A DNA stretch of 64,000 nt, taken from positions 12,358 through 76,357 of the forward strand of contig CAIKZD010000017.1 of the NCBI GenBank assembly GCA_903831805.1. The letters run 5' to 3'. Position numbers and translations under genes: made by a program. Of the stretch, positions 7,568 through 63,752 are shown one piece after another (position 1 is the first letter of the stretch; each line of letters opens with the position of its first letter). Under the pieces are notes generated by a model. It saw only the letters and a list, made by a program, of their open reading frames with translations. It did no database searches and had not been told where the DNA came from. The stretch comes from an uncultured bacterium. GTDB taxonomy: Bacteria > Patescibacteriota > Minisyncoccia > Moranbacterales > UBA2206.

Positions 7568-8584
7568 CTAGGATAAAAATTTTTCCACTTCTTCTTCAAT
7601 TTTTTGATAATAATCTAGCCATACGATACGCGCATCTTTTTTAAACCACGTCAGCTGCCGTTTGGCATAATCTTTTTCGGCTAGGTATATTTTTTCCAAT
7701 AAGTCTTCTTCGGAAGTAATATGCCCGCGTAAAAATTGTGGAATAAGTTTGTAGCTCAAACCGAAGCTTTCCATTTTTTTCCAGCTGAGGCCAGTAGCAT
7801 GTAGTTTTTGCACTTCGTCTATCATCCCACCGGCAAATCTTTTTTGGACATTTGACTTGATTCTTTCGTGCAAGACTTCTTTTTCTCGCGCGATGCCGAT
7901 CTGGAGGAAGTCGTGCTGCGCTTGGCGTGGGAGTTCAACTCCCATTAGGGGAGTTGAACTCCCTGTTTTTATTTTTGGCACTTTGCCTATGGCTTTGCAG
8001 ATTTCAATCGCTCGAATCAGTCGCACTGGATTTTTGGCGTCGATAGTTTTGGCACGCTCGGGGTCTAATTTTTCGAGCATAGTGAAAAGTTCTTCTGTGG
8101 TTTTGTTACGTAGCATGCTACGTAACACCGGATCAGGCGCGACTTCGGGATAACTGACATTATCGACGATGGCTTTGATCCAAAAACCGGTCCCACCGGC
8201 GATGATGGGGACTTTTCCGCGCGATAGAATTTCGGCGATAACTTTGTCGGCATATTTTTTAAATTTGGCGGCGTTATATTCAGTCTTGGGACTGACGATG
8301 TCGATGCCATAATGGGGGATTCCTTCTGAAAGAAAGACGTTGCCCCCTCTGTCCCGACGAGTACATCGGGACGTCTCCCCCGAGTACAGGGGAGAAGGAA
8401 TTGGGTCAGACTCAATTTTTCCAGTGCCGATGTCCATGCCGCGATAAATCTGGCGGGAATCCGCGCTCAAAACTTCGCCGTTAAATTTTTTGGCCAGTGA
8501 AATAGCGGCCGAAGATTTGCCACTAGCAGTCGGACCGAGGATGACGATTATTTTAGGAGAAAGCCTCTTTTTTTTAGTGCTCAT
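7568..8584 (-). CDS. miaA: tRNA dimethylallyltransferase
   Basis: IVILGPTASGKSSAAISLAKKF...SADSRQIYRGMDIGTGK. Start set to the in-frame Met before the P-loop. Confidence 0.85.
   Translation of the reverse strand: MSTKKKRLSPKIIVILGPTASGKSSAAISLAKKFNGEVLSADSRQIYRGMDIGTGKIESDPIPSPLYSGETSRCTRRDRGGNVFLSEGIPHYGIDIVSPKTEYNAAKFKKYADKVIAEILSRGKVPIIAGGTGFWIKAIVDNVSYPEVAPDPVLRSMLRNKTTEELFTMLEKLDPERAKTIDAKNPVRLIRAIEICKAIGKVPKIKTGSSTPLMGVELPRQAQHDFLQIGIAREKEVLHERIKSNVQKRFAGGMIDEVQKLHATGLSWKKMESFGLSYKLIPQFLRGHITSEEDLLEKIYLAEKDYAKRQLTWFKKDARIVWLDYYQKIEEEVEKFLS
7929..7965. repeat. perfect 15-bp inverted repeat inside the miaA CDS
   Basis: GGGAGTTCAACTCCC-ATTAG-GGGAGTTGAACTCCC, coding for ...TPLMGVELP.... 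Confidence 0.6.
8343..8394. repeat. AGTA-loop hairpin module inserted in frame in miaA
   Basis: CCCTCTGTCCCGACGAGTACATCGGGACGTCTCCCCCGAGTACAGGGGAG. Encodes the non-conserved peptide ...SGETSRCTRRDRGG.... Confidence 0.7.
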
Positions 8585-8783: not shown

Positions 8784-11700
8784 ATGAGAAGAAAATATTT
8801 TTTAAGAATAACAGTAATTATAATCGTTGTTTTTTTACTGGCAAAAGGCCATGTAGCGCACGCGGCTGATCGGTTCAGTGCTTTGACAATCGGGGGATCG
8901 AACAACGATACTATAAACTCTATTGTCCAAACCTCAGATGGCGGTTACGCGGCGGCGGGATATACAGCCAGTTATGGCGCGGGAGGCAACGATGTTTATG
9001 TTGTCAAATTCACATCTGCTGGCGCCCTGGACACGTCTTTCGGCACCGGCGGCACACTGACGCTTGGCGGAGCTGGTGATGATAGCGCAAATTCTATTGT
9101 TCAAACCTCTGAGGGTGGCTATATTGTGGCGGGATATACAAATAGCTATGGCGCGGGAAACTATGATTTATACATAATTAAACTTACTTCCGCAGGCGCC
9201 CTGGACACGTCTTTCGGCACCGGTGGCACACTGACGCTTGGCGGAGCCGGTAATGAGCAAGCGCGTTCTATTATTCAAACGACTGATGGTGGTTATGCAT
9301 TGGCGGGATATTCAGACAGTTATGGCGCTGGAAGCACAGATGTTTATATTGTTAAATTCACATCTGTTGGCGCCCTGGACACATCTTTCGGCACCAATGG
9401 AACGCGGACGGCTGGCGGAAATCTAGATGATGCGGCAACTTCTATTGTTCAAACAACTGACGGCGGTTACGCTATCGCTGGGAATACATATAGTTATGGC
9501 GCGGGAGGTAGTGATTTCTATATAATAAAATTCACATCTGTTGGCGCCCTGGACACATCTTTCGGCACCGGTGGCACACGGACGGTTGGCGGAGCCAGCA
9601 CTGATATTGCAAAGTCAATCATCCAAACAACCGATGGCGGTTACGCGGCAGCGGGATATACAAATAGCTATGGCGCGGGAGACTATGATGCTTATGTTGT
9701 CAAATTCACATCCGCTGGCGATCTGGATACATCTTTCGGCACCGGCGGCACGCGGACGATTGGCGGCACGGCCTATGATAGCGCAGCTTCCATCATTCAA
9801 ACAACTGACGGTGGCTACGCTTTTGCTGGGGATACAACCAGTTATGGTACATTGAGTAGTAATTTTTACATTGCCAAGCTTACTTCCAGTGGTGCTTTGA
9901 ACACGTCTTTCGGCACCGGTGGAACGTTGACGGTCAGTAGTTTCGGCAGTACTGGTGATAATGCAAATTCCATCATTCAAACAACTGATGGCGGCTATGC
10001 GGTGGCGGGGGATCCTGTGGTTATGCACTATAGTGATGGGTTTATTATCAAACTCGATACTGCGGGTTCTATGGGCAGCAGTTGCAGTAATGCGACTGGC
10101 TATGGCGGCGTGCTTGGTAGCGGTGGTGCAATAAATTCCGGCGGCACGCTTAGTAATGGCGGCACCCTTGGTAGCGGTGGTGGTGCAATAGGTTCCGGTG
10201 GCACAATTTCAGAGAAATGCAGTGTTTCTATTTCCCTGCCGACTGTTGCAACCGAAGAAGCTACTGATATTGCTGCTGATGCTGCTACTGCTAACGCTAA
10301 CTTGAGCGATACTGGCGGGGAAAATCCAAATCGTCTCATTCAATACGGCACCACGAGTGGCGTTTATACCAACTCTTGCGCCGCCGGCACTGGCGATGTG
10401 GGGGATTTTTCTTGCGCGATGACTAGTCTCTCTCCCAGTACGACCTATTATGTCAGGGCCGAAGCGATAAATTTCGCTGGAACATCTTATGGTACAGAGA
10501 TGAATTTCACGACCACAGACATCGCTCAGCTGGTGGCTCCTGTCGTAGATTCAGATTCCTCTAATCCATTTGATGATTGTCAGCCGAAGACTTTAAAAGC
10601 TAAAGCAGTTTCATCTTCAGAAATTAAATTGAAGTGGAAGGATAATTGCAGCGGGGAAGACGGCTATATTATTGAAAGAGAAACAGCAAAAGGAAAATTT
10701 AAAAAGATAGATTCGGTCGGCGAGAATAAGAATTCCTATACAGATAAAGGCCTACTCTCTAAAAAGAAATACACTTATAGAGTCAAGGCATATGAAGGAC
10801 ATGACAAAACTGGCCACACTAATAAATCGAGTGCCACAACTTTGGCCGTGATGACACCGACTAAGACTTCCCGGACGCATGTTTCCGAAACGACTCCAGC
10901 TTCAACTGATAATCCTAGTGAAGCAACCGTGACTACGAGTGTTGATACGCTTAATGTTCCAGGCAATAGTAATGGCGAGTCTTTATCGGTGGACAAAATT
11001 AATAAAAACCCAGAGAAAAAAGATTCTATCATAGCGCAAGAAGGGAAACTCTTGGGCGATTTTATCGAAAGTCCTGCCGGTCAAAAAACTTCCGCCGCGG
11101 TTACTGGTCTGGGTATCCTTGTGGGCGCGATTGTGGCGGCGGCGACTAGCGCTATTCCGCTCATAGCATCGTCTTCAGGTGGCGCTCCATTTGCTAGTGG
11201 ATTACCAAAACGCTTCAGTTTTTTCGGAATTATGACTCCCAGAGAAAAGAAAATAAATTGGGGCGTGGTGTTTGATATCGACACTCATCGACCGATCGCT
11301 GGCGCTTTAGTTTCTATACTTAATGCTGAGGAAAGAGTGGTTGATTCAATGACTACTAATATGGAGGGAAAATTCGGGTTCCTAGCGGCTAAAGGAGGGT
11401 ATACCTTCAGGATTTCCAAAAAAGATTACGCACTGTTCACTGAAAAGAATACGGATGATTTTTATGGAAAAATTTATGATGGAAAAATTTTCACAATTGA
11501 AAATGATGATGTAGCTGAGACTAATATCGCCATAAGGTCGACTAAAATTGATTGGCGTGAACTTTCCAAAAGAAAGTTGGCAATATACAAAATGGCGCTT
11601 TCAATTATAGGCAGGCATTCATTGTTGGTTTTATTCTACGGCTGTTTCGTCATTTCAGCCACTATATTGTACGTTTCTCCTTCAACATTTAATGCCTTCA

Positions 11701-12014
11701 CGGTGGCTGTGTATGTAGTTATAATAGCGCACAATCTGTTTTTTAAAGTGAAAAAATATGGATTGATAACCGATCAACGGGGCGAGCCACTGCCGTTTAC
11801 CATGGTCAGTATCTACGCTGGAGAACAGCATGACAGGCGCGCAGCTTTCGCGATCAGTGATATTTTGGGACGCTATTTTGTGTTGGCTAAAGATGATAAA
11901 TATCTGATGAAGATGCAGGGTCAAACGAGAGGAGGAGCATCTTTCGGAAAATCGTTTGATATTAATGTCAGGGACGGAGTCTTTAGGCGGGATGTAGTCA
12001 TTAAGGGAGAATGA
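8784..12014 (+). CDS. large secreted/membrane-anchored surface protein: about 9 delta-60-type repeats (DTSFGTGG, ~58-aa period), fibronectin-III-like domain, Gly-rich linker, C-terminal TM segments and carboxypeptidase-regulatory-like domains
   Basis: Signal peptide MRRKYFLRITVIIIVVFLLA. Periodic SFGTGGT...GGYxxAGYTxSYGAG...YxxKLTSxGALDT repeats, then KLKWKDNCSGEDGYIIERE...YTYRVKAYEG (FN3) and C-terminal hydrophobic segments. Confidence 0.7.
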   Translation: MRRKYFLRITVIIIVVFLLAKGHVAHAADRFSALTIGGSNNDTINSIVQTSDGGYAAAGYTASYGAGGNDVYVVKFTSAGALDTSFGTGGTLTLGGAGDDSANSIVQTSEGGYIVAGYTNSYGAGNYDLYIIKLTSAGALDTSFGTGGTLTLGGAGNEQARSIIQTTDGGYALAGYSDSYGAGSTDVYIVKFTSVGALDTSFGTNGTRTAGGNLDDAATSIVQTTDGGYAIAGNTYSYGAGGSDFYIIKFTSVGALDTSFGTGGTRTVGGASTDIAKSIIQTTDGGYAAAGYTNSYGAGDYDAYVVKFTSAGDLDTSFGTGGTRTIGGTAYDSAASIIQTTDGGYAFAGDTTSYGTLSSNFYIAKLTSSGALNTSFGTGGTLTVSSFGSTGDNANSIIQTTDGGYAVAGDPVVMHYSDGFIIKLDTAGSMGSSCSNATGYGGVLGSGGAINSGGTLSNGGTLGSGGGAIGSGGTISEKCSVSISLPTVATEEATDIAADAATANANLSDTGGENPNRLIQYGTTSGVYTNSCAAGTGDVGDFSCAMTSLSPSTTYYVRAEAINFAGTSYGTEMNFTTTDIAQLVAPVVDSDSSNPFDDCQPKTLKAKAVSSSEIKLKWKDNCSGEDGYIIERETAKGKFKKIDSVGENKNSYTDKGLLSKKKYTYRVKAYEGHDKTGHTNKSSATTLAVMTPTKTSRTHVSETTPASTDNPSEATVTTSVDTLNVPGNSNGESLSVDKINKNPEKKDSIIAQEGKLLGDFIESPAGQKTSAAVTGLGILVGAIVAAATSAIPLIASSSGGAPFASGLPKRFSFFGIMTPREKKINWGVVFDIDTHRPIAGALVSILNAEERVVDSMTTNMEGKFGFLAAKGGYTFRISKKDYALFTEKNTDDFYGKIYDGKIFTIENDDVAETNIAIRSTKIDWRELSKRKLAIYKMALSIIGRHSLLVLFYGCFVISATILYVSPSTFNAFTVAVYVVIIAHNLFFKVKKYGLITDQRGEPLPFTMVSIYAGEQHDRRAAFAISDILGRYFVLAKDDKYLMKMQGQTRGGASFGKSFDINVRDGVFRRDVVIKGE

Positions 12015-12025
12015 TAGATAATTAT

Positions 12026-13492
12026 TTATGCAAGTCTTCCTTCTAAATTCCAAGTATTGACGCGTGTTATCCTAACTTCAAGAAGCTTGCCAGCCAACTT
12101 TTTTTGGCTGGTTTTAATTTTTACATTTTTAAGGGTGCGTGTGTGTCCGAAATATTTACCAGCCCTACCATTGTCTACTAATACGTCAAAAGTTTTGCCG
12201 AGATATTGCTGATTGTTTTTGAGCGCCGACGCGGCTAGAATTTCATTTAAATATTTCTCGCGGCGAACTTTTTCTTCTTTTTTGATGTTATCCTTCAATT
12301 TGAACGCAGCTGTGCCTGGGCGCGGGGAGAATTGGCCAAAATATGACATATCATATTGCACTCGACGCATCACGCCGGCGGTTTTTTCCAGCTGGACTTT
12401 AGTTTCGCCGGGGAAACCGACAATGATGTCGGACGACAATGCAAAAATCTTCTCTGGTTTATTTTTAGCAAAACTATTTTTAATTTTTTCAATCAGCTGT
12501 AAATAATGCGCGCGGGTATAGTGGCGGTTCATATTTTTCAAAATTGTGTCGTCGCCCGACTGGATAGGCAAGTGTACTGCTTCGCAAACTTTTTCCAAGC
12601 TAGTGATGGTTTCAATCAGTTCAGCTGTCATATCTTTTGGGTGCGGCGTCATAAAACGGATCCAAAAATCTCCCGGAATGGCATTGATGGTTTTGAGGAG
12701 GTCAGAAAAATTCACAACATCACCCTCTCTGTCTCGAGTACGAGACATCTCTCCCGAGTACAGGAGAGATGGAAACATTTTGCCCCCTCTCCCGTACTCG
12801 GGAGAGGGCTGGGGAGAGGGCAATGGTTCGTAGCTGTTGACGTTCTGTCCAAGGAGCGTTATTTCTTTAACGCCTGATTTGATGAGCTTTTTAATTTCTT
12901 GCAAGATTTCTTCGGCCGGGCGTGAAACTTCTCGTCCGCGGGCGTAAGGCACGACGCAGTATGAGCAGAAGTTGTTGCAGCCGGTCATGATGGGGACATA
13001 AGCTTGGGCAGAGTTTGCGTATTTTGGAGTGACGGTTAAATAGCAATTGTCATTCTGAGCGGAGCATAGCGGAGTCGAAGAATCTGCTTTGTGGTGTAAC
13101 TGGCGATGATTATTAGTAGATTCTTCGACTTCGTCCGAGTACGGACTTCGCTCAGAATGACATAATAAAAAATTTTCAAGTTCTTGCATGAAGTCTTTGA
13201 TTTCACAAAACAAAGCCACCTTATTTTTCAATTTTTCCTGTATATCTTTCCGATTGGCCAGGCAGCCGGTCAGCACTATTTTTGTTTGCGGATTATTTTT
13301 CCAAAGATTATGGATCTGTCCGTACGCTCGGTCTTCAGCCATTTTTCTGACACCGCAAGTGTTGAAAATTACGATATTCGCTTTCGTAATGTCTTTGGCT
13401 GGCTGGATTTTTTGCGCTTCCAAAAACCCGGCCATCCGCTCTGAATCGCTGACATTCATCTGGCAGCCGAAGGTTTTGATGAAATATTGCAT
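12026..13492 (-). CDS. miaB: MiaB-family radical-SAM methylthiotransferase (tRNA-i6A37 methylthiotransferase-like), carrying two in-frame repeat insertions
   Basis: MQYFIKTFGCQMNVSDSE (MTTase N domain), CNNFCSYCVVPYARG radical-SAM motif and a C-terminal TRAM domain. Adjacent to miaA. Confidence 0.75.
   Translation of the reverse strand: MQYFIKTFGCQMNVSDSERMAGFLEAQKIQPAKDITKANIVIFNTCGVRKMAEDRAYGQIHNLWKNNPQTKIVLTGCLANRKDIQEKLKNKVALFCEIKDFMQELENFLLCHSERSPYSDEVEESTNNHRQLHHKADSSTPLCSAQNDNCYLTVTPKYANSAQAYVPIMTGCNNFCSYCVVPYARGREVSRPAEEILQEIKKLIKSGVKEITLLGQNVNSYEPLPSPQPSPEYGRGGKMFPSLLYSGEMSRTRDREGDVVNFSDLLKTINAIPGDFWIRFMTPHPKDMTAELIETITSLEKVCEAVHLPIQSGDDTILKNMNRHYTRAHYLQLIEKIKNSFAKNKPEKIFALSSDIIVGFPGETKVQLEKTAGVMRRVQYDMSYFGQFSPRPGTAAFKLKDNIKKEEKVRREKYLNEILAASALKNNQQYLGKTFDVLVDNGRAGKYFGHTRTLKNVKIKTSQKKLAGKLLEVRITRVNTWNLEGRLA
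12722..12830. repeat. compound AGTA/TACT-loop hairpin module in frame in the MiaB-family CDS
   Basis: GTCTCGAGTACGAGAC, TCTCTCCCGAGTACAGGAGAGA and CCCTCTCCCGTACTCGGGAGAGGG. Encodes ...EPLPSPQPSPEYGRGGKMFPSLLYSGEMSRTRDREG.... Confidence 0.7.
13048..13162. repeat. MITE-like element family 1 (TIR TGTCATTCTGAGCGGAGC...GCTCAGAATGACA), copy inside the MiaB-family CDS with the reading frame preserved
   Basis: Terminal inverted repeats match the intergenic copies. The ORF is continuous through it (...LLCHSERSPYSDEVEESTNNHRQLHHKADSSTPLCSAQNDNCY...) in the linker between the MTTase and radical-SAM domains. Confidence 0.7.
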
Positions 13493-17471: not shown

Positions 17472-17696
17472 ATGCAAAATGAAAAAGAAAAGGTGCATTC
17501 GGAGATGCTCCGGGCGGGGAAGAAAACTTATTTCTTCGACGTCAAAAAAACTTCCAAAGGCGACAACTATCTGACGGTCGCCGAATCATACACTGACAAA
17601 GAAGGTAAGAAAGTGATTAACCGCCTGTTGATTTTCAAAGATCAATTTGCGGATTTTGGTAATGCTCTCTTGAGGCTCAAGGAATATTTTCAGTAA
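17472..17696 (+). CDS. PUR-alpha-like nucleic-acid-binding protein (DUF3276 family)
   Basis: EMLRAGKKTYFFDVKKTSKGDNYLTVAES...RLLIFKDQFADFGNAL matches the bacterial Pur-like repeat. Confidence 0.5.
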   Translation: MQNEKEKVHSEMLRAGKKTYFFDVKKTSKGDNYLTVAESYTDKEGKKVINRLLIFKDQFADFGNALLRLKEYFQ

Positions 17697-17745: not shown

Positions 17746-17775
17746 TGCGTGGTGACTTTTATTCAATTAAAGAAA

Positions 17776-18168
17776 ATGAAAGTTTATAATAAAAATTTTG
17801 ATGAATGGAACGTTTTAAAAAAGGAATTACATAAAAGAAAAAATATTCCCTTCTTTCACGAGCGTGAAATATGGTGGTGCGCACTAGGTTTGAATGTAGG
17901 GTTTGAGGAAGATGGAAAAAATGATAATTTTGAGAGACCGATTTTGATTATGCGTGTGTTTAGCCATGAAGTTTTGTGGGTGTTGCCTATGACGAGCCAA
18001 GATAGAACTGGAGAATATTATCACCAGTTCAGATATCGCGGAGAAAAATATTCAATAATTATTTCCCAATTAAAACTCATAAGCAGTCGAAGATTACTCA
18101 GAAAAATTAGAAAGTTTTCTGAAAGGGATTTTCTTGAGGTGAAAAATAAGATCAAAAATCTTTTATAA
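17776..18168 (+). CDS. MazF/PemK-like endoribonuclease-fold protein (orphan toxin-like)
   Basis: EIWWCALGLNVGFEEDGK...ERPILIM...VLPMTSQ...SIIISQLKLISSRRL aligns with the MazF/EndoA pattern (DVYxADL..GSEQGGxRPVLV...ITSQ...QIRTIDKxRL). Confidence 0.5.
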   Translation: MKVYNKNFDEWNVLKKELHKRKNIPFFHEREIWWCALGLNVGFEEDGKNDNFERPILIMRVFSHEVLWVLPMTSQDRTGEYYHQFRYRGEKYSIIISQLKLISSRRLLRKIRKFSERDFLEVKNKIKNLL

Positions 18169-24448: not shown

Positions 24449-24544
24449 ATTATTTGATTATCCTTACTAATAATACAAATGAGTATTCCCGGGAAACAGT
24501 TCTTACCGAGGCGAACCTTTTTTGCTATACTAGAAAACATACAT

Positions 24545-25096
24545 ATGGAAAAAACAATCATTCTCGGCGGCCACAAGATAGCGTATACTCTCCGCAAAAA
24601 CCGACAATCCAAACATCTGCGCCTGTCAGTTTCAGCTGATGCGAGCGTGCGCGTGAGCGTGCCCATCCGCGTGAGTGAAAAAATGGCGGAAACTTTTTTG
24701 CGTGCCAAAGCCGATTGGGTCATGGACCGTCTGGCGGATTTTGCAAAAAAAACAAGCGCCTTGCCGCCGGCGACGCGCGCTGATTATTTGAAGTACAAGG
24801 AATTGGCGCGCGAGATCGCGGCCAAAAAGTTGCAGCATTTCAACGCGGAATATGGATATACCTGGCAAAAGATTTCCGTGCGGAACACCAAAACCCGTTG
24901 GGGGAGTTGTTCGGCCGCGGGAAACTTAAGTTTCAGCTACCGCATTATTTATTTACCGGCGCATTTGTGCGACTACATCGTGGTGCACGAACTCTGCCAC
25001 CTCGGCCAGTTCAATCATTCAGCGAAATTTTGGAATCTGGTGGCGCGCGCCGTGCCGGATTACAGGAAGAGGAGAAGGGAGATAAAGAAAATGTGA
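24545..25096 (+). CDS. M48-family / YgjP-like (DUF45) metal-dependent hydrolase
   Basis: WGSCS...HELCHL zincin motif. Confidence 0.7.
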   Translation: MEKTIILGGHKIAYTLRKNRQSKHLRLSVSADASVRVSVPIRVSEKMAETFLRAKADWVMDRLADFAKKTSALPPATRADYLKYKELAREIAAKKLQHFNAEYGYTWQKISVRNTKTRWGSCSAAGNLSFSYRIIYLPAHLCDYIVVHELCHLGQFNHSAKFWNLVARAVPDYRKRRREIKKM

Positions 25097-25196
25097 TTGT
25101 GTGAAGCGGTTCAACCGCTAACGGTAAAAATCTGAACCACTGATTTTCACGTGAGACCACGTGATTTCACTGAAGGAAAAATCATCATAGCAGTAT

Positions 25197-25353
25197 TGTC
25201 ATTCTGAGCGAAGCCTGTAATCAGGCGCAGTCGAAGAATCTGCTCGGTGTAACTACTAGTTTACCTATAAAGCACAAGTCTCGAGGTAACCACTGGCAGA
25301 TCCTTCGACTGCGTTCATCGCCTCATCGGCGACTCACTCCGCTCAGGATGACA
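25197..25353. repeat. MITE-like element family 1 copy (intergenic)
   Basis: TGTCATTCTGAGCGAAGC...GTCGAAGAATCTGC ... GCAGATCCTTCGACTGCG...GCTCAGGATGACA. Confidence 0.75.
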
Positions 25354-25594
25354 GCTATTTTTTGTATAATAATCTTTTATATAAGCCAAAAAACACCCCA
25401 GCCCTTTACAAAAAGGCGTTTTGGGTGTATACTACTATATTAGTGCCTTAACAATCGAATTTCATGAATTTGCCACGGCAGAAAGGGTTTTTATCTATGA
25501 AAAGAATTTTTTCTGCTGTGGCGAAATCAATAGAGATAAGACTGCTAAATAGTTTTGTTTTTAACAAAAAACATCAGAATAGAAGGAGGGGGAT

Positions 25595-25936
25595 ATGACA
25601 CAAGAAATTAGTATGGATCAATCGGAAAGATGGAGCAAAGCTTTGCTTGCAGCTGCAGATAAGTGCAGAGATAATTGGAAAGCAGCGCGCAATGAATGCT
25701 TTTCAAAAAATGCCATCGAAAATGTCACCATAGAAAAGATGGAGAATCCTTTTTTGTGGCAGCTGACCTTCACACGCTTTGATAAAGTGCGTGAAATACG
25801 TGAGGTCTTCGACGCCAAGGATCCATATTATAGAGTAGATCAATCGCGGGGGGACGCAAACTTTGAAGTCGATGCAATATCATACTTCATATATCTTGCG
25901 AACGATGTCTATCATGAAATGGATATTAATAAATGA
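25595..25936 (+). CDS. hypothetical protein (113 aa)
   Basis: Strong Shine-Dalgarno (AGAAGGAGGGGGAT-ATG); no recognisable domain; between MITE copies. Confidence 0.5.
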   Translation: MTQEISMDQSERWSKALLAAADKCRDNWKAARNECFSKNAIENVTIEKMENPFLWQLTFTRFDKVREIREVFDAKDPYYRVDQSRGDANFEVDAISYFIYLANDVYHEMDINK

Positions 25937-26026
25937 AAATCTCCCGATGAACAGTGAAATAAAAAAGCCAGCGACGGCAATATCGTCTCTGGCTTTTAAA
26001 TTTGGTTAAAGAAATGTGTCATCCTG

Positions 26027-26146
26027 AATGTAGCGAAGCGTAATGAAGGATCTGCTATGTGTAATAACTAGTTTTACGATAAATCACAAAGCTGGTTGTA
26101 CCCACTGGCAGATCCTTCGTCCGGCTAGCGCCATCCTCAGGATAAC
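26027..26146. repeat. MITE-like element family 1 copy (degenerate, intergenic)
   Basis: TGTCATCCTGAATGTAGCGAAGCG...GCAGATCCTTCGTCCGGC...CTCAGGATAAC. Confidence 0.65.
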
Positions 26147-26194
26147 GAGCTTATTTCCTAATAGTGGACATTAGAGAATGTTTTCGACGTTTGA

Positions 26195-26225
26195 TTGACA
26201 AAAAAATGTCAGTTGCTATTATAAT
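26195..26225 (+). promoter_or_regulatory. near-consensus sigma70 promoter (TTGACA-16/19-TATTAT/TATAAT)
   Basis: TTGACAAAAAAATGTCAGTTGCTATTATAAT, upstream of the hypothetical gene at 26299, which also has a strong SD (CAAGGAGG). Confidence 0.55.
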
Positions 26226-26298
26226 AAACTAGCTCCTTTTTATTTGCAGTTAACCTTTTAGAAACACTAAAAATCCACAATTATTCAAGGAGGATGTC

Positions 26299-26703
26299 AT
26301 GAATAATATTATGCAGTTTGATGAAGAAAAGATCAGAAGATTGCCAGAGATTTTTTCTGTAGCTGATTCCATCGGCTCCATCAGATGTTATGATGGTTTA
26401 AGTTCCAATTTTCCGTGCATAGTTCTGAGGATTGATACAGGAGAATTTTTTAATCCGTCTTTACTGCATGTTTTTCATCTGGTAGGTATTAATAATCATT
26501 GCATGATGGAGTTTTTCCATAATGGAAAAGTTCTGAAGGAATTGGCATATGCCAGGTTTGAACAGGAAGGAGAAAAAACAATAAATGTAGTGAATGTTTT
26601 AGTGAGGAATATTGTCAGAGAATGTGGTACTTCAGTAAATGATGTGGAAAGGAAAAATATCGCGACTGCAATCAAAAAATTGCTCGAAGATAGATTTCAA
26701 TAG
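26299..26703 (+). CDS. hypothetical protein (134 aa)
   Basis: Consensus promoter and SD; no recognisable domain. Confidence 0.5.
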   Translation: MNNIMQFDEEKIRRLPEIFSVADSIGSIRCYDGLSSNFPCIVLRIDTGEFFNPSLLHVFHLVGINNHCMMEFFHNGKVLKELAYARFEQEGEKTINVVNVLVRNIVRECGTSVNDVERKNIATAIKKLLEDRFQ

Positions 26704-26724
26704 CTCCTTTGTTTCTTTAAGTGC

Positions 26725-26768
26725 AAAAAAGGACAGGCCTGTTGTCGATACACGGTCTGTCCTTTTAA
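26725..26768. terminator. bidirectional terminator between convergent genes
   Basis: AAAAAAGGACAGGCCTGTTGTCGATACACGGTCTGTCCTTTTAAA. Confidence 0.6.
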
Positions 26769-26786
26769 ATTTCCTAAAAAATAAAT

Positions 26787-29700
26787 TTAATATTCCGTCA
26801 CATACACCTTCCCATCTCCAATAATTGTTTGGATTTTTTCGGGAAGACTGGCGACGTTTTTCACGCAATAGGGCGTTTCGATTTTTTTGCCGCCGATGTT
26901 GAGATATACTTTAGTCGAGCCGAGATCACAGCGGTCAAAAAGCGCGGAGAGTTCTTTCAGCGTGGTTTGCGAGAAGGCGGCGGGAAGAGAGATGGTGATG
27001 CGCGGTTTTGGCTCGACCGGAGAAATATTTTTTGTATCAATAGTTCTAGAATCTTCCACAGAAGATTCTTTTTTTTGAGGAATATGGGCCGGGGCGGGAA
27101 TGTGGCCGTTGGTTTTTTGGGTGTGGAGGATGCGGGTGAAGTTTTCCATTTCGGCCGGTGTGACGGCTTTCACGCTGTCGGCCAAAAGTTTGAACTCGCC
27201 GTCTTTATTGGACAGTTTGCCGGTGGCGAGGATAATGCGGTCTGCCACCCAGATCGAGCCGGTGGCTTCCAGGGTTTTCGGGAAGACCAGAATCTCCATG
27301 CGCGCATCCATATCTTCTACGGTGACAAAAGCCATCATTTTTTGGTTTTTGAGATAGATTTTTTTGATGGCTGAAATGATGCCACCGATGGAAATGTTCT
27401 GATTGACATGTTCTGGTCCCACGCTCCGAATTGGCACGGCCATTTTGGAAAAGTATTCCATATATTCTTTGACCGGATGATCACTGATATACAGACCCAA
27501 TAATTCTTTTTCCCAAGTGAGACGATCCTTTTTTTCGGCCGGGGGCACGGTGGCCAATCTGATTTCCGGCAGTTTCACTTCTTCCAAGCTGAACAAACTG
27601 CCTTGGTTGGTGCCGGTCAAGCGGTCCAGATTTTTGCTGTGAGTGATGATGTTCTCGATGGAGGCGATGATGGCGTTCCGCTCGGCGAAAAGGTCGAGGG
27701 CCCCAACTTTGGCCAGGGCTTCGATGGATTTTTTGTTCAAATCTTTGTGGCGCACCCGTTCGATGAACTGCGTGAAGCTTTGGAATTTTCCGCCCCGTTT
27801 TCTTTCGGCCACAACTTCATGGGCGATGGTGTGGCCGACATTTTTGACAGCGTTCAAGCCGAAGCGGATTTTGACCGTTTTGTTTTCGGCGTCGTTGATG
27901 ACGGAAAATTCTTCAAAACTTTCATTGATGTCGGGCGGCAAAACTTCAATGCCCATTTCGCGGCACTCCGCCACTTCGATGGCCACGCGGTCGATGTTGT
28001 CTTGGTCGGAAGTGAGGAGAGCGGCCATAAATTCGGCGGGGAAGTGGGCTTTCAAGTAAGCCGTTTGATAGCCGACCATGGCATAACAAGCCGCATGACT
28101 TCGATTAAAACCATATCCGGCGAATGGTTCGATGTAAGCGAAAACTTTTTCCGCTACGGCCCCGGAAATGTTTTGTCTGATGCAGCCGTCGATGAATTTG
28201 GTTTTTTGCTCTTGAATCAAAGCGAACACTTTTTTGCCCATGGCTTTTCTGAGCACATCCGCTTCACCAAGCGAGAAGCCGGCCAGTTGTTGGGCGATCT
28301 GCATGACTTGTTCTTGATAGACCGCTACACCATAAGTTTTTTCCAGGATCGGTTTCAATTTCGGATGGAGATATTCGATGCGCCGTTCGCCGTGTTTTCG
28401 CGCGATGAAGTCCGGGATCCAATCCATCGGGCCGGGACGATAGAGGGCTACCATAGCGATGATGTCTTCGAAGACGTTAGGCTTCAAAAGTTTCAAATAT
28501 CTTTTCATGCCGGAACTTTCCAGCTGAAAAACGCCGGTAGTGCGGGCTTCCTGCAGCAGTTTGAAAGTTTTTTTGTCATCTTCCGGAATGTCGTTCACAT
28601 CCAGTTCGATGTCTCGGATTTTTTTCACGATGCGAAGGGTATTTTGGATGATGGTGAGATTTTTCAAACCTAAAAAGTCCATCTTAAGGAGGCCAATTTT
28701 TTCGATGAAGCTGGATTTGGTGGAAGAAGAATATTGCGTCACCATGCCGGATTCTTTGCCGATAATCTTTTGTAGGGGAGTGTATTCCATGACCGGTTCT
28801 TTGGTGATGACTACGCCGCAAGCGTGCATGGAAGCATGGCGCGCCACGCCTTCCAAGCGCGCGGCCGAGTCGATCAATTTTTTGCCGTTCGGGTCGTTAG
28901 CCCGCAAGTCGGAAAATTCTTTCACGTTTTCTAGTGCTTCGGCAATGTTGGAAAACATCGGAATGAGTTTGGCGGTGTGATCGCAAAAATCATAGGGAAG
29001 ACCGAGCGCACGGCCGGCGTCCCGGATAGCGGCTCTAGCAGCCATGGTTCCGAAGGTGATGATTTGGGCCACATGATCGTCGCCATATTTTTCGCGCACA
29101 TAAGCCAACACTTCATCACGCCGGTCGTCGGCAAAATCCATATCCACATCGGGCATGGAAATTCTTTCCGGGTTGAGAAAACGTTCGAAAAGCAGATCAT
29201 ATTTGATCGGGTCAATGTTAGTGATGCCGATAAGATAACTCACGAAACTACCGGCCGCACTGCCACGTCCCGGGCCGACCACAATGCCCTGCGCGCGGGC
29301 CCAATTGACGAAATCGGCCACAATGAGAAAGTAGGAAGCGTAGCCGGTTTTCTTGATGATGTCCAGCTCATAAGCCATTCTGGTTTTATGCGTCTCCGTG
29401 ACAGCGCCAGCAAATCTTTTTTGCAAACCTTCCTCGGTCATTTGCAAAAGATAGGTTTCGGCGGTGAAACCTTCCGGCACATCATAGTGCGGCAACTGAG
29501 TCTCGCCGAGCTTAATTTCCACGTTGCATTTCGCAACCACCTCCTGGGTGTTGGCCAGGGCTTCCGGCACATCCTTGAAATGTTCGGCCATCTCTTCCGG
29601 ACTTTTGAGATAGAGTTCGAAATCCATCAGATTCATGCGATTGGTTTCCGTCACTTTGCGGTTGGTCTGGATGCACAGGAGAATATCCTGGATTTCGTTA

Positions 29701-30356
29701 TCTTCTTTTTTGACATAGTGGATATCATTAGTGGCCACGATCGGAATGCCGGTTTTTTTGGAAATTTCAATGAGCGCTTCATTGGCGATGGCTTGATTGG
29801 GAAATTTGGGATGATGCTGGATTTCTAAATAGAAATTGCCCACGCCGAAAATATCTTGATATTCCAGCGCCAGTTTTTCCGCTTTTTCCAGCCCGCTTTT
29901 CACCGCGGCGGAGGGCACTTCGCCTTCCACACAGGCGCTGAGGCCGATGAGTCCGTCGGAATATTGCCGCAACAGTTCACGGTTGATGCGCGGCTTGTAG
30001 TAGAAGCCGTCGATATGGGCAAAAGTGATGAGTTTCATCAAATTTTTATAACCAATTTCATTTTTGGCGAGGAGGATTAAATGGAAACGCGTGCGGTCTT
30101 CGGTGGTGTTGTTTTTGCTTTTATAATCACCGGCGGTGAGATACATCTCGCAACCGATGAGAGGCTTGATGCCGCGCGCTTTGGCTTTGATGAAAAATTC
30201 CACCGCGCCATATAGCACGCCGTGATCGGTGATGGCTAGGGAATCCATCCCGAGCTCTTTGGCGCGATCAAGAATGTCGTCAATCTTAGCTAGGCCGTCT
30301 AATAAAGAGTAGTGGGTGTGGACGTGGAGATGTGTAAATTTTGGAGTGGTGGACAT
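26787..30356 (-). CDS. dnaE: DNA polymerase III alpha subunit
   Basis: N-terminal PHP domain (HLHVHTHYSLLDG...ITDHG), then polymerase core, OB fold and a C-terminal extension. Confidence 0.9.
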   Translation of the reverse strand: MSTTPKFTHLHVHTHYSLLDGLAKIDDILDRAKELGMDSLAITDHGVLYGAVEFFIKAKARGIKPLIGCEMYLTAGDYKSKNNTTEDRTRFHLILLAKNEIGYKNLMKLITFAHIDGFYYKPRINRELLRQYSDGLIGLSACVEGEVPSAAVKSGLEKAEKLALEYQDIFGVGNFYLEIQHHPKFPNQAIANEALIEISKKTGIPIVATNDIHYVKKEDNEIQDILLCIQTNRKVTETNRMNLMDFELYLKSPEEMAEHFKDVPEALANTQEVVAKCNVEIKLGETQLPHYDVPEGFTAETYLLQMTEEGLQKRFAGAVTETHKTRMAYELDIIKKTGYASYFLIVADFVNWARAQGIVVGPGRGSAAGSFVSYLIGITNIDPIKYDLLFERFLNPERISMPDVDMDFADDRRDEVLAYVREKYGDDHVAQIITFGTMAARAAIRDAGRALGLPYDFCDHTAKLIPMFSNIAEALENVKEFSDLRANDPNGKKLIDSAARLEGVARHASMHACGVVITKEPVMEYTPLQKIIGKESGMVTQYSSSTKSSFIEKIGLLKMDFLGLKNLTIIQNTLRIVKKIRDIELDVNDIPEDDKKTFKLLQEARTTGVFQLESSGMKRYLKLLKPNVFEDIIAMVALYRPGPMDWIPDFIARKHGERRIEYLHPKLKPILEKTYGVAVYQEQVMQIAQQLAGFSLGEADVLRKAMGKKVFALIQEQKTKFIDGCIRQNISGAVAEKVFAYIEPFAGYGFNRSHAACYAMVGYQTAYLKAHFPAEFMAALLTSDQDNIDRVAIEVAECREMGIEVLPPDINESFEEFSVINDAENKTVKIRFGLNAVKNVGHTIAHEVVAERKRGGKFQSFTQFIERVRHKDLNKKSIEALAKVGALDLFAERNAIIASIENIITHSKNLDRLTGTNQGSLFSLEEVKLPEIRLATVPPAEKKDRLTWEKELLGLYISDHPVKEYMEYFSKMAVPIRSVGPEHVNQNISIGGIISAIKKIYLKNQKMMAFVTVEDMDARMEILVFPKTLEATGSIWVADRIILATGKLSNKDGEFKLLADSVKAVTPAEMENFTRILHTQKTNGHIPAPAHIPQKKESSVEDSRTIDTKNISPVEPKPRITISLPAAFSQTTLKELSALFDRCDLGSTKVYLNIGGKKIETPYCVKNVASLPEKIQTIIGDGKVYVTEY

Positions 30357-30376: not shown

Positions 30377-30419
30377 AATTTTCAATAATCAATTTACAAT
30401 TTTCATTCAATAATCAATA
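30377..30419. repeat. 43-bp AT-rich repeat AATTTTCAATAATCAATTTACAATTTTCATTCAATAATCAAT (copy 1)
   Basis: Identical to 63628..63670; extended flanks are similar; lies in the dnaE/rnhB divergent promoter region. Confidence 0.8.
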
Positions 30420-30869
30420 TTTAATATTCAATTTCGTAATTTTTAAATTAAAAAATTTAAGACATTTATTGAAGATTGATTATTGATCATTGGAAATTGG
30501 AGACAATAAAAACTACCCCAGAGAAGTAGCTTTAAATATTACGCATGATGATACAGTATTTTCCATCTTTTTTATTATCCCCTTAATCCGGATTGCTCCA
30601 TGGATGCGGCAGGATGATTATGAATCCAGTATAGCACAGAGTGTTTTCCATAACAAAAAAGAACCTGGCTATAGTTCCAGATCTTTTTTGTTTTCTTTAA
30701 TATACAGGCCTATATTTATTTCCCGCTTATATGATAAGATGGAAACAATAAACGAAAGAACTATAAAAACACAAAGTTTATTATCTCAAAAAACCATGAA
30801 CATGTCAACCCTGTTAAATAAGTGAGTAAAAATGGGGGCTTGAAATTTTGTAGCTATTTAAATAATGTA

Positions 30870-35376: not shown

Positions 35377-38300
35377 ATGAGTTTTAGAAAAGTAGAATCG
35401 AATCAAAAATTTCCGGAGATGGAAATGGAAGTGCTTAAATTTTGGGGGGAGAATAAAATTTTTGAGAAATCTTTAGAGAATCGCAAGGACGCTAAAGAAT
35501 ATAGTTTTTATGATGGACCGCCGTTTGCCACGGGCACGCCGCACTATGGACATATCGTGGCTAGTGTCATGAAGGATGTAGTTCCGAGATATTGGACCAT
35601 GAAGGGATATTACGTCGAGCGTAAATGGGGGTGGGATTGTCATGGGCTACCGATTGAGAATATCGTGGAAAAAGAATTAGGCTCAAAGAAAAAGAAAGAT
35701 ATTGTAGAAATGGGAGTGGAAAAATTTAATGAGCTTTGCCGCAGCAAGGTTCTGACCTATGTGGATGTGTGGGAGAAAGTTGTCAGTCGCATGGGGCGTT
35801 GGGCGGATATGAAAACCTCTTATCGGACGATGGACAAAGACTATATGGAAAGTGTATGGTGGGTTTTTAAAGAGCTTTGGGATAATGGACTAATCTATGA
35901 AGACTATCGCTCGATGCATGTTTGCCCAAGGTGTGAAACTACTTTGTCGCAATCAGAAGTTTCTGAAGGATATAAAGATATAAAAGATTTGTCAGTCATT
36001 GCAAAGTTTGAGCTGATTGATGAGCCGGGGACTTTTGTTTTAGCGTGGACGACGACACCCTGGACATTGCCGGGCAATGTGGCTTTGGCAGTGGGAGAAG
36101 AATTAGAATATGTGAAAGTGAAAGATTTATGGATTCCTCTGGATAAAGATAATATAAAGCCATTAGAAGAAGGAAAAACTCCGCCGGCAGTAGAAATGAA
36201 AGAGGAATATTATATTATTGAGAAGAATTCTTTTGAAAAATATAAAAAGATGTTTCATAACGCTGAGCCAAACGTTATAGAAGAATTTAAAGGTAAAAAT
36301 TTGATTGGCAAAAAATACGTTCCGCTTTTTGATTTTTATAGTAAAGACGAAAAATTAGCTAATCATAACAATGGTTGGAAAATTTATGCCGGTGATTTTG
36401 TGACGACCGAAGAAGGCACAGGCGTGGTGCACATAGCCCCGGCCTTTGGAGAAGATGATATGCGACTAGGGAAAGAAAATAATTTGCCCTTTGTGCAACA
36501 CGTGGCAATGGACGGCAGTTTCAAAGAAGAGTTGGGAGAACTGGCCGGACTGAACGTAAAACCGATTGAAAATCCACAAGCGACGGATGTGGAGATTATA
36601 AAATATCTAGCCAAGCATGGCACGCTCTTCCATAAAGAAAAATTTGAACATAGCTATCCGCATTGTTGGCGCTGTGACACGCCACTCATCAACTATGCGA
36701 CGAGTTCATGGTTTGTAGCTGTCACTAAAATCAAAGACAAAATGTTGGAGGTGGCCAAAAATATTAATTGGTCGCCGGCTAACATGAAAGAAGGCCGGTT
36801 CGGCAATTGGCTAGAAGGCGCGCGCGATTGGTCCATTTCCCGCCAGAGATTTTGGGCTTCTGTCATGCCGATCTGGGTGTGCGAAGAATGCGGCGAACAG
36901 AAAGTTTTTGGTAGTGTGGCGGAATTGGAAAAATTGAGCGGCGAGAAAATTGATGATTTGCACAAACACATCGTCGACAAAGTTACATTTCCTTGCGAAA
37001 AGTGTCAGAAGAAAATGAAGCGCGTGCCGGATGTACTCGACACTTGGTTTGACAGTGGCTCAATGCCATACGCTCAAAAACATTATCCGTTTGAAAATAA
37101 AGAACGCTTCGACAAAACTTTTCCCGCCAATTTCATTGCGGAAGGTGTGGATCAAACCCGGGCCTGGTTCTATTATTTGCATGTTATTGCCAGTGGCGTG
37201 AAAGAGCAAGAGGCTTTTCAGAATGTTATTGTGAATGGGATTGTTCTCGCTGAAGATGGCAAGAAGATGAGTAAGAAGCTACAAAATTATCCGGATCCAA
37301 TGGAAATGTTTGAAAAATATGGGGCGGACAGCGTGCGGCACTATCTGATGAGCTCGCCGGTGGTGGCTGCGCAAAATATGAATTTCATGGAAAGTGAGGT
37401 GGGTGAAATCACGCGAGGAATGATGCGCATGCTCTGGAATTCCTATTCATTCTTCGTGCTTTACGCGGACATCGACAAATTCGAAGCGGACAAAAACTTT
37501 GATCCAAAAAAACTGAATGGTCTTTTGGACCGCTGGATGGTTTCAGAACTACATATGCTGATTAAAGATTTCAATGGGCACATGGAAAACTATGAATTGC
37601 ATAAAGCGGCGCGCCTCTTGCCGAAGTTTATCGATAATCTTTCCAACTGGTACATTCGCCGTTCGCGTAAACGCTTTTGGAAAAGTGAAAACGATGGCGA
37701 CAAGAATGAAGCTTATCAGACTTTGTATTATGTTTTGGTAGAACTTTCCAAAGTTATGGCACCGTTCACGCCATTTATCGCGGAAGAAATTTGGAGAAAT
37801 TTGACGAGTGGCGTTTCAGAACCCCTCCGCCCCTTCGGGACACATCCCCTGAGTACAGGGGAGGGGGAAGTTGCGTCTGTGCATCTGCAAGATTTTCCGG
37901 CGGCAGATGAAAAATTGATTGATGAGAAAGTGAATAAAAATATGCAAGATCTTCGTGAAATTATAACTCTTGGCTTACAAGATCGGGCTAAAAACGGAAT
38001 TAAGGTTCGTCAGCCATTGAAAAGGGTTATTCTTGGACAAAAATACGCCGATGTTTTTAATGAAACTATTAATAAGATTGAATGGAGCAGTATTCTCATA
38101 GAAGAACTTAATGTTAAAGGCGCGGAGCTTGGAACGAAAACTGAAACAGTTATGATTGATACAGAAATCACTCCCGAACTGAAGCTTGAAGGGGCTGCGC
38201 GGGAAATCATTCGTCATATTCAACAGATGAGAAAAGATGCCGGCTACGAAGTGGATAACCGAATTGAGGTGTGGTATGATGGCTTAAAAGAGGTTTTTGA

Positions 38301-55255: not shown

Positions 55256-56143
55256 ATGATTGACACCCATGCCCACATTGATGACCACCAATTTGACGCC
55301 GACCGCGAAGAAATGATTGGACGGGCTTTTAGTAGCGGCGTGGAAAAAATCGTGACTATTGGGGCGGGGCTAGGATCGAGTGCGCGGGCGGTGGAGGTGG
55401 CTAAGAACCATGACAATATTTTTGCCGTGGTGGGGTTGCATCCGGAATATTTTATGCAGCATGGAGCGTGGAATGAAGAGCATAAGCAAAAGTTGGAAGA
55501 ACTGGCGCGCGCGGAAAAAGTGGTGGCTATCGGAGAAATTGGATTGGAATATCATTCACATGACGGAGCGCCTATAGCAGATGAACAAAAAGAGTTTCAA
55601 AAAGAAGGTTTTATCTATCAATTAGAATTAGCTAAGAAATTAAAGTTGCCAGTGGTCATCCATTGCCGTGGGGAGCGTGCGCCCGTAGGCGAGAAATATC
55701 GGGAAGTAGGCGAGGCGTATGAAGATGTGCTGGAGATTTTGGAAGATTCTTTCGGAACCCCTCCGTCCCGAGTACGAGACACCTCCCCTGAGTACAGGGG
55801 AGGGGGAGAACTCCCTTTTGTTGTTTTTCATTCTTTCGGCGGACGATTGGATTTTGCCAGGAAAGTCATGGCGCGCGAAAATATCTTTTTTTCTTTCAAT
55901 GGCAATCTGACTTATGCTAAACCGAGTGCGGAAATTTTGGAAGTGGTGAAAATGATTCCACTCGAAAAAATCATGTTGGAAACCGATTGCCCGTATCTTT
56001 CCCCTGTGCCGCACCGGGGGGAACGGAATGAGCCGGCTAATGTGGTTTATGTGCGGGATAAAATTGCAGAAATTAAAGCCATAGATAAAGAAGAAGTGGA
56101 CAAAATCACTTCCCAAAATGCGGTCAAATTTTTCCGTTTTTAG
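55256..56143 (+). CDS. tatD: TatD-family metal-dependent deoxyribonuclease/hydrolase
   Basis: MIDTHAHIDD...GLHPE...GEIGLE...HCR. Confidence 0.85.
   Translation: MIDTHAHIDDHQFDADREEMIGRAFSSGVEKIVTIGAGLGSSARAVEVAKNHDNIFAVVGLHPEYFMQHGAWNEEHKQKLEELARAEKVVAIGEIGLEYHSHDGAPIADEQKEFQKEGFIYQLELAKKLKLPVVIHCRGERAPVGEKYREVGEAYEDVLEILEDSFGTPPSRVRDTSPEYRGGGELPFVVFHSFGGRLDFARKVMARENIFFSFNGNLTYAKPSAEILEVVKMIPLEKIMLETDCPYLSPVPHRGERNEPANVVYVRDKIAEIKAIDKEEVDKITSQNAVKFFRF
55757..55810. repeat. AGTA-loop hairpin module inserted in frame in tatD
   Basis: CCCCTCCGTCCCGAGTACGAGACACCTCCCCTGAGTACAGGGGAGGGGGAG, encoding GTPPSRVRDTSPEYRGGGEL. Confidence 0.7.
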
Positions 56144-63627: not shown

Positions 63628-63628
<1 letters not shown>

Positions 63629-63670
63629 ATTTTCAATAATCAATTTACAATTTTCATTCAATAATCAATT
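63628..63670. repeat. 43-bp AT-rich repeat (copy 2), atpD-atpC spacer
   Basis: Identical to 30377..30419. Confidence 0.8.
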
Positions 63671-63752
63671 TTCCAATAATCAATGTCATTGAAAATTAAG
63701 TTATTGAAAATTCAATGAAAATTGAAAAATGTAAATTGAAAATTAGAGACTT

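Follow-up and report, generated by a model that had tools for sequence, protein, structure and literature searches.

Two orphan genes and MITE-like repeats in the variable gap between ygjP and dnaE of an uncultured patescibacterium

Results

An islet of two small genes between convergent core genes

The stretch considered here is a small islet of about 1.7 kb between the convergent genes ygjP and dnaE, at positions 25097-26790 of 64 kb of bacterial DNA (hereafter the window) whose closest genome matches are metagenome-assembled genomes of Parcubacteria, of the Candidate Phyla Radiation (CPR)/Patescibacteria. It contains two small open reading frames (ORFs), ORF-A and ORF-B, together with two copies of a palindromic repeat resembling miniature inverted-repeat transposable elements (MITEs) (Table 1). 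A first-pass annotation, made without database searches, had reported both frames, and both are present on the plus strand where it placed them, with 113 and 134 codons. The Shine-Dalgarno sequences that it considered unusually strong are also found (AGAAGGAGGGGGAT and CAAGGAGGATGTC), with GGAGG 5 nt before each ATG; such a core at suitable spacing precedes only about six plausible gene starts in the window. Both genes differ in composition from their flanks, with a GC content of 40% for ORF-A and 34% for ORF-B against about 50%, and a GC content at third codon positions of 40% and 31% against about 60%. Contigs of the same species show one single-nucleotide polymorphism across the 1.7-kb islet and no population signal. 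The left neighbour, labelled an M48 peptidase in the first-pass annotation, is indeed a zincin gene, but its family is YgjP-like, which we presume the label to have meant. The Pfam assignment of dnaE was made on the identical gene in contigs of the same species.

Two separate transcription units

The distance between ORF-A and ORF-B is 362 nt, and it holds the terminator of ORF-A, the second MITE-like copy and the promoter of ORF-B. Because each gene has its own predicted promoter and its own terminator, they would form two separate monocistronic units and not an operon. The predicted promoter of ORF-A (TTTACA, 17 nt, TATACT; 25405-25433) scored 10/12 in the promoter scan, and the promoter of ORF-B, correctly described before as near-consensus, combines TTGACA, a 16-nt spacer and (TG)TATTAT. 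The terminator between ORF-B and dnaE is shared by the two genes, as had been proposed: it is a bidirectional hairpin, with an A-run upstream and a T-run downstream.

ORF-B has one relative outside this species, on contig L007, where it directly follows ygjP with no ORF-A before it. ORF-A was not found by tblastn on that contig, which ends 330 nt after ORF-B, so that a downstream copy is possible. In type II toxin-antitoxin modules a single promoter serves both genes, which overlap or lie a few nucleotides apart in one operon. In the pair studied here a shared operon, co-occurrence and family membership, the three tests of such a module, all gave a negative outcome. The suggestion that the islet hides a toxin-antitoxin or other paired module is thus contradicted by the separate units, by the lack of ORF-A before ORF-B in L007 and by the absence of any family match.

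Gap content differs among relatives

Five other lineages also have ygjP and dnaE side by side in convergent orientation; in four of them the gap is complete, and it contains different small orphan genes. Gap content was compared in these four (L008, L013, L014 and L015), and the gap of the fifth (L016, DnaE C-terminus at 53%) was left out. The gaps of L013 (DnaE C-terminus at 75%) and L008 (YgjP at 85%) measure 448 and 441 nt, and each holds one 60-aa orphan, ORF-C. A membrane protein of about 155 aa with CxxC motifs is encoded in the gap of about 640 nt in L014 (DnaE C-terminus at 55%), and that protein together with two other small ORFs in the gap of about 1218 nt in L015 (DnaE C-terminus at 53%). 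None of the occupants of these four gaps matched a family, ORF-C being itself an orphan. In more distant L009 and L010 the adjacency of ygjP and dnaE is lost.

ORF-A occurs in this species only and ORF-B in 2 of the 6 lineages with the gap examined, namely this species and L007; L008, L013, L014 and L015 keep ygjP and dnaE without ORF-B, and tblastn found no trace of either gene in L008. The two genes are accordingly not conserved housekeeping genes in syntenic positions, and the earlier description of the islet as variable is borne out by a gap content that differs in every relative examined and by atypical composition.

One part of the gap is shared. An element of about 70 nt (25362-25433) is common to the window, L007, L008 and L013, with 78-79% identity to the gaps of L008 and L013. 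It consists of a short hairpin followed by T's, resembling a terminator for ygjP, with the -35 box in the loop and the -10 box 17 nt later, and it shows one compensatory pair change between L013 and L008. This promoter element precedes ORF-C in L013 and L008 and ORF-A in the window. Since ORF-A is unmatched elsewhere and its upstream promoter is shared, ORF-A would have taken the position of ORF-C downstream of an ancestral promoter. The stretch with the leader, body and terminator of ORF-A (25432-26017) has no counterpart in any related locus compared.

Further observations concern the gap. The N-termini of ORF-C and of ORF-A and ORF-B look alike by eye, but the similarity is not significant, and ORF-C was rejected as a relative. 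The ORF-C orthologue of L008 (10774-10956, plus strand) carries a TGA in frame at codon 21 in place of the AGG (Arg) found in L013, and its remaining frame is intact; this stop could reflect a pseudogene, an assembly error or recoding. In the window, the spacer after ygjP contains two CACGTG palindromes 6 nt apart (TCACGTGAGACCACGTGA, 25140-25168), which could be a protein-binding site.

ORF-B lies in a self-contained block

The homologue of ORF-B on L007 (P0003) is 72% identical over all 134 aa, without indels, and the comparison gives a ratio of nonsynonymous to synonymous divergence (dN/dS) of 0.31. Seven Cys and His residues are kept (C30, C40, H57, H60, C68, H74 and C109), and the annotated frame has the best codon score among the six. 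We place the start at 26299 because the second Met, from which some gene callers derive a 130-aa product, is Ile in L007. Judged from these sequence comparisons, ORF-B is a genuine gene under purifying selection.

The similarity to L007 includes the expression signals. Positions 26150-26776 of the window and 424-1042 of L007 share 80.7% nucleotide identity over 627 nt, with unrelated flanks on both sides. The two sequences can visibly be aligned through the ORF-B promoter and its 70-nt 5' untranslated region (UTR), whereas no similarity is seen in other intergenic DNA. Exact copies of the 9-mer ATTTCCTAA lie at both limits of homology and enclose the block (26153-26161 and 26769-26777); this 9-mer has only three occurrences in the window, and the corresponding ends in L007 are degenerate. 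The order of elements differs as well: in L007 ygjP is directly followed by the ORF-B block and then by a MITE and the conserved element, and in the window the order is ORF-A, the second MITE and the ORF-B block, with dnaE abutting. Between the window and L007, dS is 0.49 for ORF-B versus 1.59 for the adjacent ygjP. From the lower dS and the different sub-position, we read the cassette as having moved or been exchanged after the species split; probably, it was exchanged or relocated laterally among close relatives.

ORF-A and its structured leader

The reading frame of ORF-A has the best codon score among six frames, and when the local sequence was shuffled, an ORF of at least 113 codons appeared by chance in 33 of 2000 cases (1.65%). 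A single polymorphism, the non-synonymous I5S, was seen among the copies of this species. The gene is preceded by a leader of about 160 nt with a minimum free energy of -49.6 kcal/mol (z -5.75; 0 of 200 shuffles were as stable), for which we found no Rfam family at threshold and no homologue elsewhere. On this intrinsic evidence, ORF-A is probably a real, species-specific gene.

The leader also contains an upstream ORF (25464-25598, plus strand) of 44 codons, or of 33 codons from an internal ATG at 25497 that the 27-bp hairpin presents in its apical loop. Its stop overlaps the start of ORF-A as ATGA and its codon score is -0.11. This frame is probably non-coding; it could couple translation to the unfolding of the leader.

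Searches for homologues and folds

As the first-pass annotation had stated from inspection, neither protein has a recognisable domain: Pfam, NCBIfam, PHROGs and PADLOC gave nothing significant, the best of the PADLOC and PHROG matches having E values of 0.013 and 0.07. The best defence model was PDC-M07B for ORF-A (E 0.013, not significant), and none was matched by ORF-B. Sequence searches of the PDB gave nothing below E 0.9 for either protein. A word-indexed search of 5.8 billion proteins returned only clusters of the same species and the one 72% homologue of ORF-B. When an ORF-B profile was run with HMMER against the full set of 1.84 billion representatives, it recovered its own cluster and three extra matches at E ~1e-4, which we rejected as artefacts, being repeat/ankyrin proteins that share a short helical motif. 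No relatives of either protein were found in IMG/VR or GenBank phages, none of ORF-B in JGI metagenome contigs scanned with its alignment, and no paralogues or decayed remnants of the two genes by tblastn in the window or in L008-L011. Rfam gave nothing at or above the gathering score in window positions 24900-27000.

ORF-A has no membrane or hydrophobic segment, and ORF-B, likewise without a hydrophobic segment, would be soluble. Structure prediction, proposed earlier as a check, was run for both proteins and gave low-confidence models. That of ORF-A (AlphaFold2, pLDDT 64) matched only generic alpha/beta and designed proteins in the fold search, and that of ORF-B (pLDDT 47) is unusable, its Foldseek matches (E >0.8) being meaningless. 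No biochemical activity is readable for either protein from sequence or predicted structure.

MITE-like repeats and other features of the window

The two repeats in the islet are short, non-coding sequences with terminal inverted repeats (TIRs) and multiple dispersed copies, in agreement with the definition of MITEs. Seven members of their family, 120-160 nt long, are present in the window; their termini are TGTCATTCTGAGCG...CGCTCAGAATGACA, and each folds as a single long hairpin (z -4.4 to -9.3). Copies 1 and 2 have the same orientation and share 67% identity; copy 2 shares 77% with the MITE in L007. Both copies reported by the first-pass annotation are thus real family members, but the second starts at about 26017 and not at 26027; and of the two ORFs that they were said to separate and flank, ORF-A does lie between them, but ORF-B lies between the second copy and dnaE. 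No clear target-site duplication was read from the sequence at the ends of copies 1 and 2, for which there is no exact empty site. Nothing relevant to this MITE was found in the literature. A plasmid scan gave as its sole match a 37-nt MITE end: the left terminus of copy 2 (26017-26053) is 97% identical over 37 nt to the Planktothrix agardhii plasmid NZ_LR882964.1 (18641-18677). Ends of this family are thus not confined to one phylum but extend to distant ones.

Other repeats occur elsewhere in the window. A second dispersed family, distinct from the MITEs and made of two short GC-rich hairpins (CCTCTCTGTCTCGAGTACGAGACA...), has copies at 12724-12773, 55758-55807, 8350-8399 and 37819-37868. 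An AT-rich intergenic repeat of 45 nt is found at 30377-30421 and 63628-63672, 33 kb apart and 98% identical, and is part of an inverted pair at the second site (63687-63744 inverted). An ORF of 1076 aa (8784-12014) contains, at 8919-10013, five to six tandem 174-nt (58-aa) repeats that are 69-81% identical, and its product is a repeat-domain protein.

A PemK-like toxin gene also lies in the window (17749-18168, plus strand; PF02452 on the identical contig of the same species; GC 31.7%). It is preceded by a DUF3276 gene, and a 74-aa gene is located at about 17472-17696. This locus is a more credible toxin-antitoxin or accessory candidate than ORF-A and ORF-B.

Table 1. Features of the islet and its flanking genes (positions in the window)
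Feature	Position	Strand	Basis and remarks
ygjP (YgjP-like zinc metallopeptidase), left flank	24479..25096	+	PF01863, E 6e-44; also convergent with dnaE in L008, L013, L014 and L015
Species-specific spacer with short hairpins and two CACGTG palindromes	25097..25196	+	Read from sequence; no counterpart at any related locus
MITE-like palindromic repeat, copy 1	25197..25353	.	TIRs TGTCATTCTGAGCG...CGCTCAGGATGACA; one long hairpin, z -8.3
Terminator-like hairpin and promoter element (-35 TTTACA, 25405-25410; -10 TATACT, 25428-25433)	25362..25433	+	Shared with relatives
ORF-A leader (27-bp hairpin, 25465-25529; second hairpin, 25531-25563; GGAGG, 25585-25589)	25436..25594	+	Fold
ORF-A, 113 aa, acidic (pI 4.9), probably a soluble species-specific orphan	25595..25936	+	Matches in the same species only, 99-100% identical
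ORF-A intrinsic terminator	25963..25997	+	Stem AAAAGCCAGCGACGG...CGTCTCTGGCTTTT; begins 27 nt after the stop codon
MITE-like palindromic repeat, copy 2	26017..26147	.	Long hairpin, z -7.8
Self-contained ORF-B cassette (promoter, 5'UTR, ORF, terminator)	26150..26776	+	Shared with L007
ORF-B promoter (TTGACA, 16 nt, TG-TATTAT)	26195..26222	+	11/12 matches; conserved in L007
ORF-B, 134 aa, soluble orphan with conserved Cys and His	26299..26703	+	Homologue P0003
Bidirectional intrinsic terminator of ORF-B and dnaE	26727..26766	.	Fold z -5.1 (+) and -4.4 (-); conserved in L007
dnaE (DNA polymerase III alpha subunit), right flank	26787..30356	-	Pfam PHP, DNA_pol3_alpha and related domains

Discussion

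The recurrent replacement of small genes between the same two neighbours suggests that the islet is a gene-turnover hotspot with two unrelated, independently transcribed orphan genes for small soluble proteins, and we consider this explanation reasonably probable. The gap between ygjP and dnaE would be a miniature hotspot in which orphan genes are interleaved with MITE-like palindromes. ORF-B would travel as a self-contained cassette of about 625 bp that comprises its promoter, the UTR, the ORF and the bidirectional terminator. ORF-A would have replaced a different 60-aa orphan, ORF-C, downstream of the conserved terminator/promoter element, and the MITE insertions may have been bystanders or facilitators of this turnover.

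Several points weigh against this explanation. The codon score of ORF-A, 0.086, is near the 5th percentile of gene windows in the genome, and comparative support for its coding capacity is lacking, as only near-identical copies exist. The case for lateral transfer of ORF-B rests on one short-read contig of 1.3 kb, L007, which ends in repeats and could be mis-joined, and the low dS of ORF-B could instead stem from constraint at the nucleotide level. Furthermore, it is from their patchy distribution that we infer ORF-A and ORF-B to be dispensable accessory proteins.

Other explanations can be envisaged for a pair of small genes in such a place. It would be tempting to regard ORF-A and ORF-B as a toxin-antitoxin or other two-gene conflict module, given that they are small, adjacent and on the same strand, with strong ribosome sites and in a variable low-GC islet, and given that ORF-A is acidic, like many antitoxins and inhibitors. 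However, the terminator, MITE and promoter between them leave no operon, ORF-B directly follows ygjP in L007 without a preceding ORF-A, neither protein matches a Pfam, NCBIfam or PADLOC family, and no DNA-binding domain is detectable; the idea is largely refuted by gene architecture, and we hold it to be highly improbable. One or both proteins might instead act alone in conflicts with phages or mobile elements, whether in single-gene defence, in anti-defence or in immunity. Such a role would agree with the fast turnover, the patchy distribution, the foreign composition and small size of the genes and what appear to be autonomous, strong expression signals, as well as with the PemK-like toxin gene of similarly low GC 7.4 kb upstream. 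This argument is purely circumstantial, however, and runs counter to the non-significant PADLOC and PHROG matches, to the absence of relatives in phage or viral collections and to neighbours that are housekeeping and not defence genes. For a phage-borne anti-defence gene in particular, there are neither relatives in IMG/VR or GenBank phages nor an adjacent helix-turn-helix gene, and the neighbours are ygjP and dnaE. We therefore consider a solitary conflict role unlikely.

The two remaining alternatives concern ORF-A. That it is a structured non-coding RNA or a chance open frame, and not a protein gene, seems quite unlikely to us: GGAGG stands 5 nt before its ATG, the codon score of its frame exceeds that of the other five, frames of its length are rare among shuffles (33/2000), a terminator begins 27 nt past its stop codon, and there is no Rfam match, although the lack of homologues beyond near-identical strains, the non-synonymous nature of its sole polymorphism, its unusually structured leader and its low-confidence AlphaFold2 model speak in favour of this reading. 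ORF-A could also be the passenger of a composite of two MITE copies, a mobile insertion cassette with a transposase acting in trans, since the gene, its promoter element and its terminator lie exactly between two copies in the same orientation, and seven family copies in 64 kb suggest activity. Yet identity between the two copies is no higher than 67%, and neither a target-site duplication nor a second copy of the composite was found. In addition, the enclosed promoter element is present in the MITE-free gaps of L008 and L013. Because this element is ancestral to the site, the MITEs more likely inserted separately, and we give the composite a very low probability.

A turnover hotspot, the explanation that we favour, shares with known flexible islets its conserved flanks, a content that differs in each lineage examined, atypical GC and cargo of unknown function. 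It differs from them in being very small (0.4-1.7 kb) and in having no integrase (for which no search was made), no tRNA and no recognisable att site, and it carries orphan genes singly, each under its own promoter and followed by its own terminator. The resemblance to type II toxin-antitoxin modules lies in two small adjacent genes on the same strand of a variable region, and ends with the lack of predicted co-transcription, of co-occurrence in the sole relative of ORF-B and of a family or DNA-binding antitoxin domain. With MITEs and MITE-flanked mobile insertion cassettes the islet has in common short, non-coding, multi-copy palindromes with TIRs and the position of ORF-A between two of them. 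It departs from such cassettes in the divergence of the two copies, in enclosed DNA that is partly ancestral and in the absence of visible target duplications and of any sign that the composite has moved.

The ORF-B block also invites comparison with integron cassettes and Xer-dependent (dif) modules, since it is compact, has a single gene and no recombinase, occurs at two positions and carries a short direct repeat in the window. An integron cassette has an attC site and a nearby IntI integrase, and a promoter of its own is atypical. The ORF-B block differs in having its own promoter and terminator, and its 9-bp repeat is degenerate in L007; inspection by eye revealed no site resembling attC or dif at the block, and no systematic search for attC or integrase was made. 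It is a far-reaching and very doubtful idea that the block is a new minimal mobile cassette without a recombinase (promoter, UTR, orphan gene, bidirectional terminator and 9-bp direct repeats), which a host-encoded recombinase would move in trans into the gap between ygjP and dnaE in related Parcubacteria, and that this gap is a dedicated landing pad for single-gene cassettes.

The genomes of CPR/Patescibacteria are small, and many of the proteins that they encode have no known function. Orphan genes are to be expected in their variable islets, and no new system or function is revealed here; of modest interest is that a self-contained ORF-B cassette occupies two positions without an accompanying recombinase. 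The islet also advises caution, in that a pair of small unknown genes with strong expression signals between repeats does not amount to a toxin-antitoxin or defence module unless transcription architecture and co-occurrence have been checked. On the explanation that we favour, the whole content of a gap as short as about 1 kb between core genes can be replaced among close relatives, and an orphan gene can move together with the signals for its expression, which would be a small data point on how orphan genes originate and spread in reduced genomes.

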